Shown here piece after piece: positions 21,996-34,480 of a DNA stretch of 64,000 nucleotides. Within the stretch, counting starts at the first letter, position 1; each line of letters starts with the position of its first letter. The notes below the pieces were generated by a model. The model ran no database searches and was not told the DNA's origin. It saw only the letters and a list, made by a program, of their open reading frames with translations. This stretch comes from an uncultured Candidatus Saccharibacteria bacterium (lineage in GTDB: Bacteria > Patescibacteriota > Doudnabacteria > UBA920): the NCBI GenBank assembly GCA_964436545.1, contig CAYTCJ010000004.1:59368-123367 (forward strand), written 5' to 3'. The position numbers were made by a program, and so were the translations under genes.

Positions 21996-23501
21996 TTAAT
22001 TACCTAGCACAATAATCAGATCAACTTTGTCCGCATCGAGCTTAACTCCCGGAGGAGGCAAGCTTACCTCTTTGGCCTGAAAAGTGTTTTTAATAAATTC
22101 CAAAGAGGCGGGCTTGGGGTTGACGGTAAATACAATGGTTTGCGAGAGAAAGTCCGGAGTATAATTTAGTTTCCAGACTGTAAAATTATTGGCTAATAAT
22201 TTTTGTTCCGCCTGTTGATATTTTTTTGCATCAGTGGTGGAATTGGCGAGCCAAACTCGACTACGTTCGGCATTAAGTTTACCGTATAAAAAAGTATTTT
22301 TGAAATAGTCTCTTAAATCATCTAAGGTTTTACCCGGACAGGGGATTAAAATGTAAGCTCCGGTTTCGGCTTGAATTTCGGGGCAGACTAAGCCGGTTTC
22401 CAAACCTAAGTTTAAAGATAAAAATTGTTGAATGTTTTGGTTTTTAACCAATTCGTATAAACGGTAAATCTCGCCGGGGTTTAAGTTAGTATGAAAGTGG
22501 TCGGATAAGATGCCTAATAAATTATTGAGTTTATTGGGACTGGCTAACAGGTTTTTGCTGAACACTTTACTCTTAAACGCCATAATAACTTTTTGTTGTC
22601 GGAGACTGCGAGCAAAATCACTGCCTTCGTTATTATTACCATGGCGGGAGCGGGCAAAAATCAGGGCCCTTTGGCCGTCCATATGCTCGGGACCTTGAGT
22701 AAAAGTTTGGGTGGGCAAAAAGCCTAATTTTTCATCGGGAAATTGGGCGTCGGAAAAACTGTTTTCTATGTTCACCGTAATGCCACCCACTTCATTAATG
22801 GCTTTTTCAAAGCCGGCAAAATCGATTACCGCAAAATAAGGAATAGTTAAACCCGAAAGTCTTTCTACGGCTTGTCTGGCCCATTTACCGGCGGTATCGT
22901 AACTTTTGGTTCTTGCCATACCTTCGGCAAATACGCTGTTAATTTTTCTATCGCCTAAGTTATTTGGGAGGGTGGTAAGCCAATCCCTAGGAATGGAGAC
23001 AAAAGCAACTTCGGAAGTTTGGGGTTTAATTTGTGCGAGGAGCATACTGTCGGTTAAGTAAGGACCTTCGTGGCCACTCCCGCCAATCCCTAAGAGTAAA
23101 ACATTAATTTGCCCTTTATTTTCACCTTGGAGTTTTAAATTGCCGGTTGCTCCTCTTAAGGCTTCCCAGACTTTGCCAAACACTGTGGTGGTTTGACCGG
23201 TAAAAATTTTAGCCGAGAGGGTATTGGCGCGATGGAATACCCAAACAGCCATTAAACCGCAAAGCACAAAAATTAAGAGCCACCAAAATTTTTTACCGGT
23301 GGGCACTTTGGGATTTAAGGCTAATAAATCTATAGTTTGGGGAGATGGTGAGGGCGTTGGAGTTTTAGCGGTTAACGGGACTCCCGGAGTAATTGAGGGA
23401 GGGGAAGGTAGCGAAGTTTTTGGGGGTTTAACTATAGGTGGCACAGCTGAAGTTTTGGACAAAATGGGTTTTTGTGATGCGGAGTCTAAAGATTTTTTCA
23501 T
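21996..23501 (-). CDS. LCP-family (LytR-CpsA-Psr) cell-envelope protein
   Basis: Pro/Thr-rich N-terminus, TM helix, and the LCP core (LLLGIGGSGHEGPYLTDSMLL ... VSIPRD). Confidence 0.75.
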   Translation of the reverse strand: MKKSLDSASQKPILSKTSAVPPIVKPPKTSLPSPPSITPGVPLTAKTPTPSPSPQTIDLLALNPKVPTGKKFWWLLIFVLCGLMAVWVFHRANTLSAKIFTGQTTTVFGKVWEALRGATGNLKLQGENKGQINVLLLGIGGSGHEGPYLTDSMLLAQIKPQTSEVAFVSIPRDWLTTLPNNLGDRKINSVFAEGMARTKSYDTAGKWARQAVERLSGLTIPYFAVIDFAGFEKAINEVGGITVNIENSFSDAQFPDEKLGFLPTQTFTQGPEHMDGQRALIFARSRHGNNNEGSDFARSLRQQKVIMAFKSKVFSKNLLASPNKLNNLLGILSDHFHTNLNPGEIYRLYELVKNQNIQQFLSLNLGLETGLVCPEIQAETGAYILIPCPGKTLDDLRDYFKNTFLYGKLNAERSRVWLANSTTDAKKYQQAEQKLLANNFTVWKLNYTPDFLSQTIVFTVNPKPASLEFIKNTFQAKEVSLPPPGVKLDADKVDLIIVLGN

Positions 23502-23744
23502 AACTTTACTATTATATCTAATATCATTAAAATAAGCTATACGGTATGACTTGCTTTATGAGGTTTAGAATGGTATTATTTTGACACACTGCAAAGATTT
23601 TAAAGTATAAAAATTGGATAAATTAGGGTGAGGCGAGACGTAAAATTAATATCAACTGGTTATCTGCCTCTACCAGTCGGTAGACAGGTGCCGGCAGGCA
23701 GGGAGCGTTGCATTTTCACCCCGTTAAATTATTTGGTCGTATAG

Positions 23745-23943
23745 CTCAGTCTTGCCCTGTTAGATTTTTTGGACAATTAGCTCAGCTGGTTAGAGCGTTG
23801 CATTCACATTGCAAAGGTCACTGGTTCGAATCCAGTATTGTCCACCAAATCTAACAGGGTGAAGTTACCTGCCTGCCGGCAGGCAGGGAGCGCGCCGTTC
23901 ACATCGGCGAGGCCTCTAGTTCGAGTCCAGATACGACCACCAT
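23745..23943 (+). pseudogene. Split tRNA-Val-like gene (outer copy) interrupted in the D-loop by an about 125-bp insert that contains tRNA-Val(CAC)
   Basis: The 5' part GGTCGTATAGCTCAGTC (23745-23761) and the 3' part GGGAGCGCGCCGTTCACATCGGCGAGGCCTCTAGTTCGAGTCCAGATACGACCACCA together give a complete cloverleaf with anticodon CAC. The insert is bounded by the inverted repeats CCCTGTTAGATT / AATCTAACAGGG. The whole unit is flanked by CCCCGTTAAATT / AATTTAACGGGG. Confidence 0.4.
23771..23847 (+). tRNA. tRNA-Val (anticodon CAC)
   Basis: GGACAATTAGCTCAGCTGGTTAGAGCGTTGCATTCACATTGCAAAGGTCACTGGTTCGAATCCAGTATTGTCCACCA. Canonical cloverleaf with CCA encoded. Confidence 0.8.
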
Positions 23944-24156
23944 AATCACGACTAAATTTAACGGGGCAAGCATTGCAAAGGTACTGGCTTGCCCTGTTAA
24001 ATTCGCAAAGCGAATATTTAACAGGGTAAAAATCCAGTATTTTCTATCATTCTAAAAGTTTATCTACCTACCGTTTTTTTTGCTCTTGACCGAATTGGAA
24101 AAATCATTACAATTACACTACTGCTCACTCAATTAGAAAACTATTAAAAAAGTTTT

Positions 24157-24747
24157 ATGGAAACCCAAAATCTGCAAAATCAAAATGACAATTCGAGTTC
24201 AGTTAAAAGTTTTGTTTGGGATTTGGTAAAAATTATTACCATTTCTTTGGCGATTATTATTCCGTTTCGATTAATTATTGCCGAGCCGTTTGTGGTGAGC
24301 GGTTCTTCCATGTTGCCCAATTTCCACGACCGGGATTATTTAATTGTGAATCGGTTAACCTATCGCGAACACTTACCCAAGCGGGGAGATGTAATTGTAA
24401 TGAAGTATCCTAAAGATAACCGACAGTATTTTATTAAACGCATTATTGGGCTACCGGGCGAATCGGTAAGTTTGGTTAACGGTAAAGTTAAAATCAGTAA
24501 TGCCAACAATCCGGCGGGCTTTGTGCTGGAAGAAAGTTATTTACCCGCTGAGACACCGACTTTGGGTAAGCCCGGGCCCACCACTTTGGGCAGTGAAGAA
24601 TATTTTGTGTTGGGTGACAACCGCACCGCTTCCTCAGATTCGCGCGTGTGGGGAATTTTGCCTAAAAGTGATATTGTCGGTAAGGCTTGGCTCAGAGTGT
24701 TTCCTTTTAAAACTTTTGGGTTTATTCCTTCTGCCAGTTATTGGTAA
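24157..24747 (+). CDS. lepB: Signal peptidase I
   Basis: SGSSMLP (catalytic Ser), IKRIIGLPGE, and GDNRTASSDSR (catalytic Lys region). Confidence 0.9.
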   Translation: METQNLQNQNDNSSSVKSFVWDLVKIITISLAIIIPFRLIIAEPFVVSGSSMLPNFHDRDYLIVNRLTYREHLPKRGDVIVMKYPKDNRQYFIKRIIGLPGESVSLVNGKVKISNANNPAGFVLEESYLPAETPTLGKPGPTTLGSEEYFVLGDNRTASSDSRVWGILPKSDIVGKAWLRVFPFKTFGFIPSASYW

Positions 24748-26118: not shown

Positions 26119-26265
26119 AAGTTGTAAGTAGTAAGTTGTAGGTTGTAGGTAACTTACTACTTATTTACTTACAACTTACAACTAATTTTATGGACCCCGT
26201 TAGAAGTTTAAACAATTATTAAAGCAACTTGATTAACTTAAAATAAATTATTACAATTTTTACTT

Positions 26266-26619
26266 ATGATTACTTCTAACGGGGTGGACGATTGTGTATT
26301 TTGTAACATTATTAATAAAACCATTGAGGCTACCGTAGAAATGGAAGACGCTGAGGTGCTGGTAATTCGGGATATTTTGCCCAAAGCGCCGGTGCACTTG
26401 TTAATTTTGCCCAAAATTCATTTGGTCTCGGTTAATGAATTAACTCAGGAACACAGCGCTTTGGTGGCCAAGTTGGTTTTGACAGCTAAAGCCATGGCGG
26501 AAAAGTTTGGCATAAACCAGACGGGTTATAAGTTAATTTTTAACGTGGGGAGAGACGGCGGTATGGTAATTCCCCATTTGCATTTACATTTGTTGGGTGG
26601 TAAAAATTTGGGGGAATAG
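26266..26619 (+). CDS. HIT-family (histidine triad) hydrolase
   Basis: HLHLHLL histidine-triad motif. Confidence 0.88.
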   Translation: MITSNGVDDCVFCNIINKTIEATVEMEDAEVLVIRDILPKAPVHLLILPKIHLVSVNELTQEHSALVAKLVLTAKAMAEKFGINQTGYKLIFNVGRDGGMVIPHLHLHLLGGKNLGE

Positions 26620-29171: not shown

Positions 29172-29466
29172 GCGAAGTTATATTATTATTCCTAACTTTC
29201 CAGTTTGGGAAGATCATATAACACAGCTCTTTAAATTATCCCTTAAGGAGGGATTAGACCCTAGTTAAATAGTGCCAATTTGGTTTGGAAATTTAACAGG
29301 GTAGAGTGTTACTTTTTAACCGCGGATTTGTGGCTGAGTTTAAAGTCAGTTGCAAATTAATTGCGGATGGTTTGGGTCTGCCAAGTGGCAGAAGTTGATG
29401 GCGAACGAATGCATAAAGGGCATTTGTCCCATGCGATAGAGATTTCATTTTATTTCACAGATGTTA

Positions 29467-29505
29467 GCGATGCGAATATACGAATGCATGCTAATGATAC
29501 GAATG
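29467..29505. repeat. 39-bp direct repeat, copy 1 of 4, bounding the GC-rich cassettes
   Basis: GCGATGCGAATATACGAATGCATGCTAATGATACGAATG. Other copies at 31079-31117, 31200-31238 and 34444-34480. Confidence 0.75.
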
Positions 29506-29635
29506 AATACGGATAGGGGAATCATAACTCCCCCTACCCCCTCTTTGGAAAAGAGGGGGGAAGAGAGGAATAAAAATGGAATAGCTATTGCATGGGGCAA
29601 ACAGACAAGCCCCCAATGCAGAAAGGAGCACAAAA

Positions 29636-30769
29636 ATGTGCTCATCAATCACGCGTCTTATCCTCGCCGTGGGTCTCGCGACCCTCGGCACAACCGTGTC
29701 CGCACAGTACGCCCCGACGCCCGACCCGGGCGAGCGAGCGCTCCGGCAGCAGCAGGCGCCACCCCCGCCGGCTCCGAAGCCCGAGGCTCCGAAGCCCGAG
29801 GCTCCGAAGCCCGAGGCTCCGAAGCCCGACCCGTTTTTTGATGGTAGCTGGGGAGGATGGAGGGCTTGGCTCGGAGGGATCGCCCTCCTGATCGCCGCCG
29901 GCATCGGGGTGGTGGTTTGGCGTCGCCGGCGGAACAACCGCCCCGCACACGACGATCATGGCAACGACCCCCAGCCCCCCGCGAACCCGAACCCGAACCC
30001 GAACGCGCCGCCGCCCCCCACGCCTGTCAACCACATGATAGCGTTGATGCTCGTCGGTGGTGCGCTCGCACTCGCAACCCTCGGTGCCCCGTCCGTGTCC
30101 GCCGCCCCTATGGAGGGGTGTGTGGTGACGGCTGTCAACGGGATGGTCGGCGACGCTGAAATGCCAGTGTTGGTGTCCGGCGCGGACAATTTCGTTTCGT
30201 GCCACGCCCCCGGCGTGTCGGAAGTGAAGCTCACGGATGGGAAGGGGCAGGTTGTTCCCGTCAAGAAGCTGGTAAAGACCAGCGATGGGTTCAATTTCTC
30301 GTACACGCCCCCGGCCGGAACCGCTGCGGAGTTGCATGTGCAAGCTGGTAGTCGCAAGGTTGCCTCGCTTTACACTAACAGCGCCTTCGGCGCCTGGACT
30401 GCCTACACGGCGGTTCAGAGCGTCCGGCCGGAGATCCGCGCCGCGGCCACGGACGCCAGCGCCGCGCTCACCGCCGCCAAGTCCGCGGCCGAGGCGGTGA
30501 CGAAGCTCACCGGCGTGGTGGCCGACCACGGCACCCGCATCACCGCGCTGGAGTCTCGGCCCGCCCCGACGGTCGACCTCTCGGCCTACGACCGCCGGCT
30601 TCGCGAGCTCGACGGCGAGCTCGCGAAGGTTAAGGCCGCACAGGTCGCCACCGACGCCCAGGTAGCCAAAAACGCCGAGGGGCTGGAAGCCCTCGGCAAT
30701 CGCCGAGTCGGCAAGGGCGGAATTTTCGGCAGGTCGGGCAGGCTCGCCGACCTGCCCGAGGCCAAGTAG
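29636..30769 (+). CDS. GC-rich (about 68%) secreted/anchored Pro-rich repeat protein with a coiled-coil C-terminus (possibly two fused cistrons)
   Basis: RBS AAAGGAG then ATG; signal peptide MCSSITRLILAVGLATLGTTVSA; (PKPEA)x4 encoded by a 15-bp tandem DNA repeat at 29762-29821; TM helix plus RRRR; second signal-like segment at 30037. Codon usage is foreign to the host. Confidence 0.55.
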   Translation: MCSSITRLILAVGLATLGTTVSAQYAPTPDPGERALRQQQAPPPPAPKPEAPKPEAPKPEAPKPDPFFDGSWGGWRAWLGGIALLIAAGIGVVVWRRRRNNRPAHDDHGNDPQPPANPNPNPNAPPPPTPVNHMIALMLVGGALALATLGAPSVSAAPMEGCVVTAVNGMVGDAEMPVLVSGADNFVSCHAPGVSEVKLTDGKGQVVPVKKLVKTSDGFNFSYTPPAGTAAELHVQAGSRKVASLYTNSAFGAWTAYTAVQSVRPEIRAAATDASAALTAAKSAAEAVTKLTGVVADHGTRITALESRPAPTVDLSAYDRRLRELDGELAKVKAAQVATDAQVAKNAEGLEALGNRRVGKGGIFGRSGRLADLPEAK

Positions 30770-31078
30770 CCGGCGGCCAAGAAGGCGCCGGCGAAAAAAG
30801 AAAAAGAAGAAGAAAAGGAGGAAGAAGGAGAGGTCTAACCTTTCCCCCTACGCATAGCCAGTGCAGGCTATGAGTAGGGTAACAACCAAGCATGGGGGAT
30901 TTGTGCACTCAAATCCCTCCAGTTCTTTCTTTCTGTTTTGGGTAGTTTTTACCCCCTCCCTTAACCCTCCCCACAAGGGGGAGGGAAAAAGCAGGGTGAA
31001 TACCACCCCCTCCGATTAACATTGGAGAACATCTCCTATTTTAGGAGGAGAAGAGAAAGAGGGAAATGGAGAAAAATC

Positions 31079-31117
31079 GCGATGCAAATATACGAATACA
31101 TGCTAATGATGCGAATT
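31079..31117. repeat. 39-bp direct repeat copy 2
   Basis: GCGATGCAAATATACGAATACATGCTAATGATGCGAATT. Confidence 0.7.
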
Positions 31118-31199
31118 TACGGATTCTACAGATATCTACAGATGAAGACAAAAGACACAAATATTGGTCCACAGATCACACGGATACACAGATATTAGT

Positions 31200-31238
31200 G
31201 CGATGCGAATATACGAATGCACGCGAATGATGCGAATG
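31200..31238. repeat. 39-bp direct repeat copy 3
   Basis: GCGATGCGAATATACGAATGCACGCGAATGATGCGAATG. Confidence 0.7.
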
Positions 31239-31353
31239 TATATAAATAGTTAATAATAGTTGTAAGTTGTAAGTTGGTAAGTAAAACAGAAATCAGCAAA
31301 GCAGTAAGCACATTAAAAAATCCCGCCAGTAGGGCGGGTGAGAATAAGAAAAA

Positions 31354-31611
31354 TTAAAAAGGAATAGGTATACCGGTTTTAGCTGATACTTGTTTTGCCC
31401 AATCTTCTAGTCTTTCTATTCGGTGGCGATTGACTATCATTTCCTGTTCAAAGCCTTTTACGGTTTTACAAAGATAATCCAGAGTGGAGGTTATGGAGTC
31501 AACTTTTTGTTCTAATTTGTTAAAGCGAGTGTCAATATCCGCCTTCATTTCATCTAAATATTCAAATAAGGGCTGAAAGTTTGTGGTTGTCGTGGGAGTT
31601 TTTTTAGGCAT
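31354..31611 (-). CDS. Small hypothetical coiled-coil protein (85 aa)
   Basis: AT-rich ORF inside the island. No motif. Confidence 0.35.
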   Translation of the reverse strand: MPKKTPTTTTNFQPLFEYLDEMKADIDTRFNKLEQKVDSITSTLDYLCKTVKGFEQEMIVNRHRIERLEDWAKQVSAKTGIPIPF

Positions 31612-31864
31612 AAGGATAGAAAAAATTATGTTTATTATATTATATCAAGTTATTGAATTTTTGGAAATATACAGCTAAAATATAATGCGGTTTTTTGGTG
31701 GGTAGCTTTTTTTACCCCCTCCTTCCGATGTGTATCGGAAGACTCCCCCTATGTTAGGGGGAGAGGGGAGAAGAGAGGTACCCGGCAAGAAAACGCGGTA
31801 CAAGTGTCCCTTGCCGGGATGCGAAAAATTTTGAGGAGGAAAAATATCAATTGCAAGATGATAG

Positions 31865-31913
31865 TTTACGGATGTTACAGATACCTACAGATGGGGACAA
31901 AAAGGCACGGATG
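31865..31913. repeat. 45-49-bp ACRGAT-phased repeat unit (copy U1)
   Basis: TTTACGGATGTTACAGATACCTACAGATGGGGACAAAAAGGCACGGATGG. Related units at 33048-33096, 34303-34351 and 34361-34407. Confidence 0.65.
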
Positions 31914-32027
31914 GAAAATCATAACCCCCTCCTAACCTCCCCTTCCGCCAGAGGCGGACAGGTATCTTAAGGGGAGGAAGAAGAGAGAAAAACCGGATGA
32001 GCAAGAAAGGACATTTTTTGTCATTCC

Positions 32028-32111
32028 GAATCCTGATATTCATCAGGACAAGTTTAATTTGGAATCCAGAAAATGGATTCCCGTTTTCACGGGAATGACA
32101 GCAAATAAGCA
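32028..32111. repeat. Family-A palindromic element immediately upstream of the 32234 cassette gene
   Basis: TGTCATTCCGAATCCTGATATTCATCAGGACAAG ... GGATTCCCGTTTTCACGGGAATGACAG. Confidence 0.55.
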
Positions 32112-32233
32112 ATTTTATTATTGCTATAAGCTGATCACTGGGCACTTACCACTGATCACTAATTTGTGTTTTTTCTTGCTCGTCCGGTGCCTTTGGGCAA
32201 ACCAATCCGGACAGGCGAGAAAGGAGAATTCGC

Positions 32234-32968
32234 ATGAGTTTACTCATTGTGATTGGTCTCCTGATTTTCGCCCCATGGTGCGCCCAGGGGCAAACTCGGC
32301 TGCTGGTCCCGCGGGCGGACTCGGCTACCGCCATGGTGCGGTGCGGGGCCAATCTGGAAAGCGTAAAGGCGGAGAATCAATTGACCCGTCAGTACGTTTT
32401 TACAGGGGAGGAGACTCTGACGGGGATGCAATACTGTGTTGAGAGTCGCCACGCTCTCGTGGATGACCGCAACCGGTACCGTGTTCCGGCAGGGACCATT
32501 GGCTGGTTGTCTTCGGACGGCCAGTCGGTGGTTCTGGAGCAGTGCGTCAATATGGCGCACTGCGAGGGTTGTCCTCCCGCCCCACCTCCTCCGCCCCCGC
32601 CCCCGCCGGCGCCGAAGCCGGAACCCAAGCCGGAACCGCCCCCACCGGCACCCGAGCCCCCGGCGCCAAAGCCGGAACCCACCCCCGAGCCGGTGGTTGT
32701 CCGGCCCGAGCCACCCCCGCGGGTGGTTTTGCCCAAGCCCGAGCCACTGGCGCCGGCGCCGAGGCCCGCTCCCGTGGTCAAGAGGGGCGGGCACGGGAAG
32801 CTTATCGGGGGGTTGGTTGGGGCGGGGGTCGCGGGGGCAGTGGCGTATTTCGCCACTCGCGACCGCCACGACGCGTCCGCCCCGCCGGCCCCGGGCGTAA
32901 AGCCGGGGGTGCCGGTAGTTTCCCCGGCCTCACGGCCGGGGGGAGCCGGATTCGCCATCCGGTTCTGA
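32234..32968 (+). CDS. GC-rich (about 70%) secreted Pro-rich surface protein with a C-terminal TM anchor
   Basis: RBS AAAGGAGAATTCGC then ATG; signal peptide MSLLIVIGLLIFAPWCAQG; Cys-containing domain; PPAPPPPPPPPPAPKPEPKPEP linker; LIGGLVGAGVAGAVAYFA TM. Confidence 0.55.
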   Translation: MSLLIVIGLLIFAPWCAQGQTRLLVPRADSATAMVRCGANLESVKAENQLTRQYVFTGEETLTGMQYCVESRHALVDDRNRYRVPAGTIGWLSSDGQSVVLEQCVNMAHCEGCPPAPPPPPPPPPAPKPEPKPEPPPPAPEPPAPKPEPTPEPVVVRPEPPPRVVLPKPEPLAPAPRPAPVVKRGGHGKLIGGLVGAGVAGAVAYFATRDRHDASAPPAPGVKPGVPVVSPASRPGGAGFAIRF

Positions 32969-33047
32969 CATCTTGCCCCAAGCGGTAATGGGCGAATTTT
33001 ACCGCAAAGACAGGAACTTCGTGTGTCCTGTCTTTTTTCGTTTACAG

Positions 33048-33096
33048 TTTACGGATGCTACAGATAACTACAGATGGGGACAAAATATACGGATGC
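33048..33096. repeat. ACRGAT-phased repeat unit (copy U2)
   Basis: TTTACGGATGCTACAGATAACTACAGATGGGGACAAAATATACGGATGC. Confidence 0.65.
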
Positions 33097-33270
33097 AGAG
33101 TTTTATACGACGTATAGGACTCCGCCAGCTGGCGGATAAGTAGTATAAGACCTATACAAATATAGTAAGGAATTTTAACTTATTCTAAAGATTGACAAAA
33201 ATAGCAAAATGTGTTAAAATTGAATGTCCCAAAATTTTGGGGATTTTTGTGAGGTGGTATTTTTAGAACT

Positions 33271-33300
33271 GGATTCCGGCTCAAGGCCGGAATGACAAAA
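33271..33300. repeat. Family-A palindrome upstream of the protease cassette
   Basis: GGATTCCGGCTCAAGGCCGGAATGACAAAA. Confidence 0.55.
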
Positions 33301-33367
33301 ATCGGGATCACAGTCAAGGATAAGCCTTAGAAATATCACTTTCCAAAAATTCCATAGGAGGTGGGCG

Positions 33368-34144
33368 ATGGCCCAAGAAAATCCTCGTCGCTGGAGCGAC
33401 GAGGATCTGCTGCTTTTAATAGTGGCTCTCTTGTGCCTGTCAGCAGGTTTGTTGCTGATAGGAGATGAGAGTGGGGAAACGGTTCCCCACGGGCCAGTTG
33501 CCCCGCCCCAGCAACAATACCAAACCCCCCGCCCGAGGGAAGAGTATCGGGCGCCCCGCCGGTGGGAAGAACCGGCACCTCGACAGGAGGCACCTGCCCC
33601 GGCCCCTCAGCGAACCACACCCGCCCCTGGGGTGTGGGAGGACATTCGGTCGAGGAATGTCCTTGTCCGGCAAGGGGCTGGACAGGGAAGCGGGGTCCTC
33701 ATTGGCCACGGGCTGGTCCTGACGGACTTTCACGTGGTTGATGGGGGATGGGGGGCGGTGATTGACGGTCACGGGACCGCAATCGTGCAAGCTTGGGACG
33801 AGGGTAATGACCTCGCAATCCTTAAGCTTGTGGGATATGACCCCACACCCCGTCTGGACTTCGCGTTTGACCCGGACTTGCTCCGTCCGGGCACACGTCT
33901 GGTTACCGTGGGTAACCCTAGAGGGGTCACGGTGTCTCAGACTGGGTGGGTGGAAGCCGGGTCAGGTCAAGGCTTCTGGGCCAGGATGGACACCTGGTCC
34001 GGGCCCGGGGCGAGTGGGAGCTTAGTATACTCGCTGGATGGTGCCCCGGTGGGCATTGTCCAGCAGTGGGACGGAACCGGCATTCGGGTGAAGTGCCGAG
34101 ATCTCCGTCCCATTGTCCGACTCCTCAACTATATTGGGCGCTAA
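33368..34144 (+). CDS. GC-rich trypsin-like (S1 family) serine protease with N-terminal membrane anchor and Pro-rich linker
   Basis: RBS TAGGAGGTG. Catalytic triad contexts: VLTDFHVV (His), NDLAILKL (Asp) and GPGASGSLVY (Ser). Confidence 0.68.
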   Translation: MAQENPRRWSDEDLLLLIVALLCLSAGLLLIGDESGETVPHGPVAPPQQQYQTPRPREEYRAPRRWEEPAPRQEAPAPAPQRTTPAPGVWEDIRSRNVLVRQGAGQGSGVLIGHGLVLTDFHVVDGGWGAVIDGHGTAIVQAWDEGNDLAILKLVGYDPTPRLDFAFDPDLLRPGTRLVTVGNPRGVTVSQTGWVEAGSGQGFWARMDTWSGPGASGSLVYSLDGAPVGIVQQWDGTGIRVKCRDLRPIVRLLNYIGR

Positions 34145-34302
34145 TTGCGCCTACCTTTCCAGAGGCAGGGTTCAAGTCCTCTGGCGCGTGCTTAGACAAC
34201 ACGCGAAAGGTTTTTTACGAACAAGGCGGGTTAAACCGACCTTAAGTAGAAAAATCACTTAATTGTCTCCGCTCAGAGCTTTGTGCTTCTGGGCGGTTTT
34301 TT

Positions 34303-34407
34303 TGTTTACAGATGCTACGGATGTCTACAGATGGGGACAAAAAGACACGGATAAATACAGCTTACAGATGCTACGGATGTCTACAGATGGGGACAAAAGA
34401 CACGGAT
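34303..34407. repeat. Two tandem ACRGAT-phased units (U3, U4; 58-bp period)
   Basis: TTACAGATGCTACGGATGTCTACAGATGGGGACAAAA(A)GACACGGAT twice. Confidence 0.7.
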
Positions 34408-34443
34408 ATTGGTTCACAGATCATGGATTTACACAGATGTTAT

Positions 34444-34480
34444 GCGATGCGAATATACGAATGCATACGAATGATACTAA
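34444..34480. repeat. 39-bp direct repeat copy 4
   Basis: GCGATGCGAATATACGAATGCATACGAATGATACTAAT. Confidence 0.65.

Follow-up and report, generated by a model that had tools for sequence, protein, structure and literature searches.

Nested tRNA-Val genes in a Patescibacteria chromosome probably record successive landings of palindromic, tRNA-carrying cassettes

Here we describe a nested tRNA-Val locus in a 64-kb stretch of DNA, hereafter the window, which is core chromosome of a bacterium of the Patescibacteria (Candidate Phyla Radiation, CPR). An intact tRNA-Val(CAC) gene lies in the D-loop of a second tRNA-Val gene, which in turn lies in the anticodon loop of a third, all within a 655-nt spacer with divergent genes for a LytR-family protein and signal peptidase I on either side. 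We consider it probable (roughly 0.65) that three generations of a single gene are stacked at the locus, built up as palindromic cassettes carrying tRNA-Val and resembling MITEs (miniature transposable elements with inverted repeats) landed in the loops of resident tRNA-Val genes. A sequence-only reading of the window had listed a tRNA gene disrupted by a tRNA-carrying palindromic element among its alternatives, and this one is favoured by recurrence in related genomes, by the decay stages of the outer copies and by MITE-like palindromes elsewhere. Throughout, L1 denotes the inner tRNA-Val, L2 the middle and O the outermost copy, and numbers from L001 onward denote fetched contigs or loci.

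The central claim of the sequence-only reading, a tRNA-Val(CAC) between inverted repeats that sits in the D-loop of another tRNA-Val, holds. L1 (23771-23847) is the sole gene called in the nest by ARAGORN and by Rfam (tRNA, RF00005, 73.2 bits); it is presumed to be the functional gene of the nest, and L2 and O to be nonworking earlier copies. The inner inverted repeat (CCCTGTTAGATT, 23755-23766; AATCTAACAGGG, 23848-23859) is complementary at 12 of 12 positions, as is the outer one (CCCCGTTAAATT, 23719-23730; AATTTAACGGGG, 23955-23966), and the perfect 20-nt palindrome reported in the insert is also present (CCTGCCTGCCGGCAGGCAGG, 23868-23887). The 5' half of L2 (GGTCGTATAGCTCAGTC) occupies 23735-23751, 10 nt lower than the 23745-23761 given earlier, and the 3' half occupies 23886-23942; the insert between them measures 134 nt instead of about 125 bp. 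When joined in silico, the halves do rebuild a full cloverleaf, which ARAGORN calls tRNA-Val(cac) and in which every stem is perfect except for one A·C in the T-stem. In place, L2 escaped ARAGORN whether the intron (-i) and pseudogene (-ps) options were on or off, the intron model covering anticodon-loop introns only. The predicted minimum-energy structure of an RNA spanning 23715-23970 is a nested cloverleaf-in-cloverleaf (-106.3 kcal/mol; z = -8.1; 0 of 200 shuffles equally good).

Fragments of a decayed third copy had been suspected on both sides, and these can be assigned to four pieces of an L1-like gene, O, between 23641 and 24041: a decayed 5' part (23641-23662), GAGCGTTGCATT (23703-23714), CATTGCAAAGGTACTGG (23971-23987) and AATCCAGTATT (24031-24041). 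O is interrupted three times, at the D-loop/D-stem border, in the anticodon loop (by the L2 cassette) and in the T-loop (by a 35-nt hairpin, 23992-24026). The four repeat ends in the window pair crosswise, the 4-nt flanks as 1 with 3 and 2 with 4 and the 12-nt cores as 1 with 4 and 2 with 3. Rfam searches of 23500-24200, at the gathering threshold and at E up to 10, returned only the tRNA and chance microRNA-like hairpin matches. A candidate acceptor stem for O, GTAAAAT/ATTTTCT, was rejected, as L003 shows the true 3' strand (ATTGCCC-ACCA), which is deleted in the window. The parts of the nest are, in order:

23571-23579, plus strand: candidate TG-extended -10 promoter element (TGGTATTAT) upstream of the nest, read from the sequence, with a putative function.
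23641-23662, plus strand: O, in decayed form the 5' strands of the acceptor and the D-arm, and the D-loop (…TCAACTGGTTA), matching the first 22 nt of L1 at 15 of 22 positions.
23663-23702, plus strand: palindromic insertion of the second family (CCTGCC-type) between the D-loop and the D-stem 3' strand of O; TGCCGGCAGGCAGGGAGCG occurs exactly at 23689 and 23874.
23703-23718, plus strand: piece of O (GAGCGTTGCATT + TTCA) made up of the 3' strand of the D-stem, the 5' strand of the anticodon stem and the first part of the anticodon loop, with an exact 12-nt repeat of L1 23793-23804.
23719-23730, plus strand: left arm of the outer palindromic cassette (CCCCGTTAAATT), pairing with 23955-23966.
23735-23751, plus strand: L2 5' exon (GGTCGTATAGCTCAGTC), comprising the 5' strands of the acceptor and the D-stem and the beginning of the D-loop, forming a cloverleaf with 23886-23942.
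23752-23766, plus strand: conserved junction TTG and left arm of the inner cassette (CCCTGTTAGATT); the junction TCAGTC-TTG-CCC is found in 11 other CPR genomes.
23771-23847, plus strand: L1, intact tRNA-Val(CAC) with encoded CCA, called by ARAGORN and Rfam RF00005.
23848-23863, plus strand: right arm of the inner cassette (AATCTAACAGGG) and conserved junction TGAA; GGG-TGAA-GTTA is conserved across loci.
23868-23887, no strand assigned: 20-nt perfect palindrome CCTGCCTGCCGGCAGGCAGG of the second family, between the remainder of the L2 D-loop (GTTA, 23864-23867) and the D-stem 3' strand.
23888-23942, plus strand: L2 3' exon, from the 3' strand of the D-stem through the anticodon arm (CGCCG-TTCACAT-CGGCG), the T arm with its A·C mismatch and the 3' strand of the acceptor to ACCA.
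23943-23970, plus strand: trailer of the L2 cassette (TAATCACGACTA), then its right arm AATTTAACGGGG and the junction CAAG; the homologue of trailer and arm in L014 is TAATTGCGACCATATTTAACGGGG.
23971-23987, plus strand: piece of O (CATTGCAAAGGTACTGG) that runs from the end of the anticodon loop through the 3' strand of the anticodon stem and the variable loop to the 5' strand of the T-stem.
23988-24030, no strand assigned: palindromic element without cargo in the T-loop of O (CTTG + CCCTGTTAAATTCGCAAAGCGAATATTTAACAGGG + TAAA).
24031-24041, plus strand: piece of O (AATCCAGTATT) with the last part of the T-loop and the 3' strand of the T-stem; the 3' strand of the acceptor has been deleted, and L003 retains ATCCAGTATTGCCCACCA.

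Several of these boundaries recur exactly elsewhere (a caret marks the insertion point). The insertion point GGTTA^…^GAGC of the 23663-23702 element is also found in L034, L009 and L040; the window, L032 and L034 agree exactly in the junctions GCATT^TTCA-CCCCG and CAAG^CATTGCAAAGG. The identical 20-mer CCTGCCTGCCGGCAGGCAGG occupies the same position in L034 and the anticodon stem/loop border in L018. Within the window TCAACTGGTTA and TCAGCTGGTTA form a direct repeat, and L034 has the same layout for the 5' part of O.

The arrangement is not confined to the window. By a synteny route that is independent of DNA motifs, leading from homologues of histidyl-tRNA synthetase (HisRS) to contigs with the same gene order, a tRNA-Val(CAC) was found in the slot between the LytR-family and signal-peptidase genes in all of these contigs. 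In L003-L006, L009, L012 and L014 the slot holds an intact tRNA-Val(CAC) within disrupted tRNA-Val copies, the same nesting as in the window. Nesting depth in related Patescibacteria reaches three to four levels. In L003-L006, the HisRS of which is 76% identical to that of the window, a very different intact gene (GGACCCG…) lies in the anticodon loop of a decayed outer gene, and this outer gene shares the 35-nt T-loop hairpin with the window. L014 (GCA_038065175.1) has at least three levels, and its middle gene (GGACTCG…) is cut at the exact D-loop position of L2, with the junction GCTCAGT-CTTG-CCCCG…CGGGG-TGAA-GTTAGAGC. L012 has the same arrangement with the entire nest on the opposite strand, and in L009 an outer 5' part is followed by an inner gene that combines the acceptor stem of L1 with the anticodon stem of L2. 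In L007 (HisRS 85% identical) the tRNA by the signal-peptidase promoter ends in …ACAGGTTCAAATCCTGTACCGCCCACCA, is unlike the window copies and has no relics or hairpin downstream; turnover at the slot thus appears fast.

A metagenome scan with a HisRS alignment gave 80 loci, 31 of which carry tRNA-Val(CAC) in the slot. On inspection at least 12 of these 31 are nested (L030, L032, L034, L037, L039, L040, L043, L049, L051, L055, L056 and L060). A clean single tRNA-Val is present in L047, L057 and L059 (inspected) and in L038, L052 and L095 (by motif count only). One contig, L098 (Ga0182028_1316913), is one big perfect palindrome with nested exact inverted pairs centred near 2515; as a probable fold-back assembly artefact it was left out of the counts.

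A second search used a DNA pattern, TCAGTCTTGCCC-N(85-115)-GGGTGAAGTTA, across 185,579 GTDB species genomes. It returned 11 loci (Moraniibacteriota, Parcubacteria and others) that share the D-loop junction TAGCTCAGT-CTTG-CCCCG…CGGGG-TGAA-GTTAGAGC, each of them a tRNA-Val gene broken in the D-loop at the same junction. All 11 look CPR-type; two have non-CPR bin labels, and the sequence of one of these is also that of a Patescibacteria contig, without any difference. What the insert carries is either a whole tRNA-Val whose anticodon equals that of the disrupted copy (CAC in seven; GAC within GAC in L024) or, in the rest, about 66 nt of AT-rich non-tRNA DNA. The Ala, Arg, Met, Phe and Gly tRNA genes beside these loci are intact. 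Viral contigs were scanned twice for this junction, the spacing of its halves being set at 85-115 and at 20-50 nt, and gave no match and no sign of a phage vector.

The state of the outer copies was compared by eye, and they form a decay series. Every stem is intact in the outer copies of L019, L024 and L055, and one mismatch each is present in L2 of the window and in the middle copy of L014. In L017 and L037 the 5' and 3' acceptor halves of the outer copies do not match each other; the outer copies of L021 and L022 are decayed, those of L015, L016 and L020 are truncated by further insertion, and that of L039 is a degraded form of the outer copy that is clear in its relative L037. Every disrupted copy examined encloses or adjoins an intact tRNA-Val of matching anticodon. 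Moreover, if the insert is cut out at the conserved junction, AGT^GTTA remains, and the D-loop then has one G instead of G18-G19; in L2 of the window two D-loop G's are supplied only by the second, unrelated palindrome. Together, the decay series, the intact partner gene and the single-G D-loop suggest pseudogenes of differing age, not a maintained split gene.

Individual cassettes can also be followed from one context to another. L2, taken together with its leader, trailer (TAATCACGACTA) and arms, shares about 85% identity with the innermost cassette of L014, which is intact; nearly all differences lie in the anticodon stem, and the L2 5' exon is homologous to the 5' end of the intact inner tRNA of L014. 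This homology indicates the same cassette, whole in one species and disrupted in the D-loop in the window. Its targets differ, as the L2-type cassette sits in a D-loop in L014 and in an anticodon loop in the window. Similarly, a GGTCGCA-type gene is the inner copy in L014 and L060 and the disrupted outer copy in L032 and L056. Positions 2873-2998 of L021 and 2620-2750 of L024, from related Moraniibacteriota, are a 90%-identical nested cassette at a syntenic locus, with anticodons CAC and GAC, respectively. The outer and inner copies of L024 have the same anticodon arm, and the sequences of this pair point to a possible anticodon switch plus gene conversion between nested copies.

The palindromes fall into two families. 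Family 1 has the form CCCCG/CCCTG-arm…arm'-CGGGG/CAGGG, is mostly 90-120 nt long and occurs with or without tRNA cargo. Family 2 (CCYGCCYGCC…GGCRGGCRGG) includes the 20-mer at 23868-23887 and behaves similarly; it carries the inner tRNA in L040, L043, L003 and L049. Family 2 sites in tRNA-Val relics are the D-loop/D-stem border (GGTTA^…^GAGC), position 37/38 of the anticodon loop and T-loops (window, L034, L018, L040, L009 and L021). Among 12 Family 1 D-loop elements, recovered with the arm sequence left free beyond CCC/GGG, an element's own arms pair at 11.4 of 13 positions as against 6.3 of 13 across elements, and at least eight different arm sequences occur; it is thus the hairpin, not its sequence, that is conserved. 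In size and repeat structure the palindromes resemble MITEs, being non-coding, 35-120 nt long and bounded by complementary arms of 11-16 nt that start CCCCG/CCCTG. The same holds for copy number and polymorphism: four clear copies and one related palindrome are present in the window, and one copy, in the gene of the HIT protein, is absent in L003. The contents of the nest, too, vary between relatives. Outside the nest the window holds one of these elements and one related palindrome:

26191-26288, no strand assigned: Family 1 copy (CCCCGTTAGAAG…CTTCTAACGGGG) in the 5' end of the HIT gene, with a TGGA/TGGA duplication.
29260-29302, no strand assigned: related short palindrome CCCTAGTTAAAT…AATTTAACAGGG.

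At non-tRNA sites Family 1 elements are flanked by perfect 4-bp duplications: TGGA, TAAA (L012), CTTG (L012 and L030) and TTTA (L039). The TGGA duplication lies at the HIT start codon (window 26195-26284, L008 and L052) and at the signal-peptidase start (L032), the CTTG duplication in the -35 box of the signal-peptidase gene (L012 and L030), and the empty HIT site is preserved in L003 as ttttATGAACGATTGT. Copies of the HIT-type element are found at L008 1352-1449 and L052 5405-5499, and another, with the same flanks, at the signal-peptidase start (L032 1821-1913). In the window the HIT element lies just past the original ATG and carries promoter-like sequence and a new start codon (26266) together with seven N-terminal residues, giving the N-terminus MITSNGVD-. 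At tRNA loops the flanks are of another kind. D-loop, T-loop and 37/38 insertions have CTTG, CCTG or CCCG on the left and TGAA or TAAA on the right, and anticodon-loop insertions (window, L032, L034, L014 and L056) have the reverse complement, TTCA…CAAG/CAGG, which produces the crossed pairing of the four repeat ends in the window. We tried to read the tRNA-loop flanks (CTTG…TGAA, TTCA…CAAG) as 2- or 4-bp duplications, as halves of a T-loop, as serine- or tyrosine-recombinase cores and as the central helix of a bulge-helix-bulge, and none of these fits every junction.

These observations can be brought together in the following scheme. A cassette of about 100 nt with a complete but promoter-less tRNA-Val would land in a loop of the resident tRNA-Val, destroying and at the same time replacing it. 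In the window the L2 cassette would have entered the anticodon loop of O and the L1 cassette the D-loop of L2, O being hit additionally by palindromes without cargo in its T-loop and at its D-loop/D-stem border. As tRNA-Val(CAC) is presumably a single-copy essential gene, an insertion would survive only with a working replacement oriented to the resident promoter, which would explain why only tRNA-Val is hit, why the anticodons match and why the cargo lies on the strand of the disrupted copy. The whole nest may be one precursor transcript from a promoter upstream of the outermost relic. TGNTATAWT-like motifs are found upstream of the outermost fragment in L032, L034, L037, L040, L049 and L056, and a TG-extended -10-like motif at this place in both the window and its relatives suggests that the nest is probably one transcript; a consensus promoter scan of the window nest found weaker sites only, and a terminator scan of 23300-24300 found none. 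L1 could then be released by normal RNase P and 3'-end processing, with the flanking stem of 12-16 bp perhaps serving as a processing or insulating helix. Nested copies may later swap segments by gene conversion, which would give rise to mosaic stems.

Some of our own data weigh against this scheme. The flanks at tRNA loops are not duplications but constant asymmetric tetranucleotides (CYYG…TRAA), with a few target bases missing; either the tRNA-loop element uses a different insertion chemistry, with four bases included and either orientation possible, or the junctions were spread by recombination. No transposase, integrase, homing endonuclease or HNH protein was found by Pfam among 30 open reading frames (ORFs) scanned in the window, and the mobilising activity is therefore hypothetical; a search of the fetched loci for an autonomous element of up to 5 kb with the same arms gave arm pairs at chance level or from L098. 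The relic pieces are also over-conserved for neutral DNA. The 35-nt T-loop hairpin (23992-24026) is identical at 35 of 35 positions to L003 4052-4086 and is shared by L003-L006 at a HisRS identity of only 76%, and the rest of the spacer is mostly poorly conserved, the signal-peptidase promoter aside, which hints at function or recent exchange. Finally, several outer genes are perfectly intact, and a functional split gene would look alike.

Could the nests have formed by local recombination with no dedicated cassette? Palindromes would accumulate, and duplication, inversion, template switching and gene conversion would build the nests, which would spread between lineages by natural transformation and homologous recombination. 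There is much in the mosaics that speaks for such a process: the inner gene of L009 joins two sources, L2 and the inner gene of L014 differ essentially in the anticodon stem, the nested copies of L024 share an anticodon arm, and the outer halves are chimeric in L017 and L037. The inversion of the entire nest in L012, the crossed pairing of the window's four repeat ends, a junction type that tracks exon type (CAAG^CATTGCAAAGG in the window, L032 and L034) and the competence genes encoded in the window (ComEC and DprA) point the same way. However, recombination would hardly put a complete gene in a loop at the same nucleotide in more than 15 genomes with differing outer genes, nor does it readily account for one cassette in two different target loops or for a palindrome family with transposition-type target duplications and an empty site elsewhere. 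We therefore regard it as an unlikely explanation of the nests. The recombination hotspot suggested by the sequence-only reading stands as a secondary process, seen in the exchange of stems among nested copies, and is unlikely as the main origin. That reads of several tRNA-Val genes or strains were simply mis-joined in assembly seems scarcely credible. Logan contigs of run SRR11567520 do end inside the nest, which counts in favour of an artefact and against the cassette scheme, and the repeats of the nest are short; however, the same contigs independently match both flanks, L002 up to 23752 with O(5')-L2(5') and L001 from 23818 with L1(3')-L2(3')-O(3'), leaving 23752-23818 unspanned, and the architecture recurs in assemblies of other projects and assemblers (metagenome-assembled genomes at NCBI, ENA and JGI contigs). 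The two breaks fall at the junction of the L2 5' exon with the insert and inside L1, though no repeat of 31 nt or more is present there; low coverage could account for them, or a second allele in the same sample, such as an L2 with no insert.

A different possibility is that the outer genes still work. The inner tRNA with its stem would be removed by RNase P and RNase Z (or by RNase III), and the outer halves would pair through their acceptor and D stems or be religated, making the locus a multi-tRNA gene. Bacterial 23S rRNA offers a parallel, as RNase III cuts out its intervening sequences, the ends are not rejoined and the rRNA works in pieces. L2 has perfect acceptor, D and anticodon stems, a CAC anticodon, A73 and CCA, and the fully intact outer copies of L019, L024 and L055 would be expected of a working gene; the conservation of junction and hairpin but not of hairpin sequence, the position of some Family 2 insertions at 37/38, the canonical intron position (L040, L049 and L003), and the predicted fold as a nested cloverleaf would also be consistent with function. 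Against this, the intact same-anticodon gene by every disrupted copy examined makes the outer copies redundant, many of them are chimeric, decayed or truncated, and the T-stem A·C of L2 is uncompensated. The non-canonical intron of the sequence-only reading fares no better: there is no group I or group II intron signal, no bulge-helix-bulge is visible at the junctions by inspection or in the fold, and excision at the junction leaves the single-G D-loop. We consider functional outer genes quite improbable, and we would give slightly less credence still to the notion that the hairpins are genuine bacterial tRNA intervening sequences and the outer halves a working two-piece or religated tRNA-Val, which would be the first split tRNA in Bacteria. 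Successive cassettes landing in tRNA-Val loops thus remain our preferred reading.

As to the remainder of the window, the nest is bounded by two protein-coding genes:

21996-23501, minus strand: LytR-family protein.
24157-24747: signal peptidase I.

Other genes of the window encode DprA, peptidyl-tRNA hydrolase, Der, HisRS, HIT, S21, YqeY, FtsA and FtsZ. A high-GC island at 29455-34475 (GC 0.48-0.58, as against about 0.40 elsewhere) encodes a Trypsin_2 protein (33368-34144) and has Pro/Ala-rich ORFs that match nothing in Pfam. Its borders are marked by roughly 45-nt direct repeats, CACAGATGTTA(G/T)GCGATGCGAATATACGAATGCAT…AATGATAC, at approximately 29455-29500 and 34427-34475, and tandem direct repeats of about 55 nt (…acagatgctacggatgtctacagatggggacaaaagacacggata…) lie at 34310-34410, just inside its right edge. 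The island looks like an integrated foreign element or a chimeric join.

How do these cassettes compare with known systems? Among small elements, bacterial MITEs and Rickettsia palindromic elements (RPEs) are similar in being non-coding palindromes of about 100 nt, multicopy and resident in a reduced genome. The target duplications at non-tRNA sites and the presence/absence polymorphism of the palindromes described here are MITE-like, and their in-frame insertion at gene starts, here at the N-termini of HIT and signal peptidase, is RPE-like; in-frame RPE insertions are described in a 2024 review of prokaryotic MITEs (PMC10969869), which makes no mention of tRNA. Unlike MITEs and RPEs, the elements of the nest carry a complete tRNA gene as cargo, target loops of the same tRNA species, nest recursively and have covarying arms rather than one terminal-repeat sequence. 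Genomic islands and prophages mobilised by tyrosine integrases share a preference for tRNA genes and the restoration of the tRNA by the sequence of the element. However, what such elements carry of the tRNA is confined to its 3' part, and they encode an integrase and leave behind a 3' fragment as a direct repeat, none of which is found here; in the nests a 5' part lies upstream and a 3' part downstream of a complete gene.

Structure-recognised hairpins and constant boundary tetranucleotides are presumably also features of the HUH systems (IS200/IS605 and the palindrome-associated transposable elements, PATEs; REPIN/RAYT; IS91 with its CTTG/GTTC target) and of attC sites, and in these respects they resemble our elements. 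CTTG is the commonest left flank here, and GTTRRRY/RYYYAAC-like motifs are found in many arms. By analogy, the covariation of the hairpins, the constant CYYG…TRAA and the cloverleaf-loop targets would point weakly to a structure-recognising process, either single-strand-DNA transposition or site-specific recombination. IS200/IS605 and IS91 make no 4-bp duplications, unlike what is seen at the simple sites here, and neither an HUH nor an IntI gene turned up in the 30 ORFs scanned in the window. A reading of the hairpins as integron attC sites was rejected, as GTTRRRY precedes RYYYAAC in each hairpin, only 23955-24003 has the attC order and no integrase was found.

With archaeal non-canonical introns and split tRNAs the nests share interruptions of the D, anticodon and T loops, complementary flanks and several interruptions per gene. 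They differ in that a bulge-helix-bulge is not seen, the host is bacterial and the outer genes decay, and splicing is thus unsupported. In the predicted fold, the D stem at the L2 junction is followed by an internal loop of unequal sides and then by 12 bp of unbroken helix, without paired 3-nt bulges 4 bp apart. No group I or II intron family appeared in the Rfam scan of 23500-24200 at E up to 10, the insert being only 134 nt, and no splicing endonuclease or ligase was seen among the ORFs scanned in these 64 kb of genome. A recent survey of tRNA introns in Patescibacteria deals with those of group I and II only, in genes that ARAGORN can detect (PMC13011429). Neither a tRNA gene nested in another nor a MITE with tRNA cargo was found described in the full-text literature searched, which came from an incomplete collection.

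In concept the tRNA-Thr locus of Caldiarchaeum comes nearest; there, a recombinase-encoding element of about 1.8 kb apparently disrupted a tRNA gene, leaving a single 5' fragment, and such integration was proposed as a route to disrupted tRNA genes (PMC3293823). As in this and other archaeal cases of the pNOB8/SSV type, an element in a tRNA gene keeps a working copy and leaves the old fragment behind. Unlike at the Caldiarchaeum locus, the elements here are non-coding and only about 100 nt long, the new gene has a 5' relic before it and a 3' relic behind it, and all this is seen in a bacterium. A tRNA gene that travels as the payload of a tiny mobile element and replaces a resident gene of the same identity would be a mode of gene turnover, and it may explain why such divergent tRNA-Val sequences occupy one syntenic slot among related Patescibacteria. 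For annotation, standard tRNA finders detect the innermost copy only, tRNA-like debris risks mis-calls, and nests break short-read assemblies. Since the palindromes also rewrite gene starts and promoters (HIT and signal peptidase) in very small genomes, they constitute a tractable family for the study of genome change. The origin of interrupted, multiply interrupted and fragmented tRNA genes has so far been argued almost wholly from Archaea, and the nests described here may supply a bacterial example.

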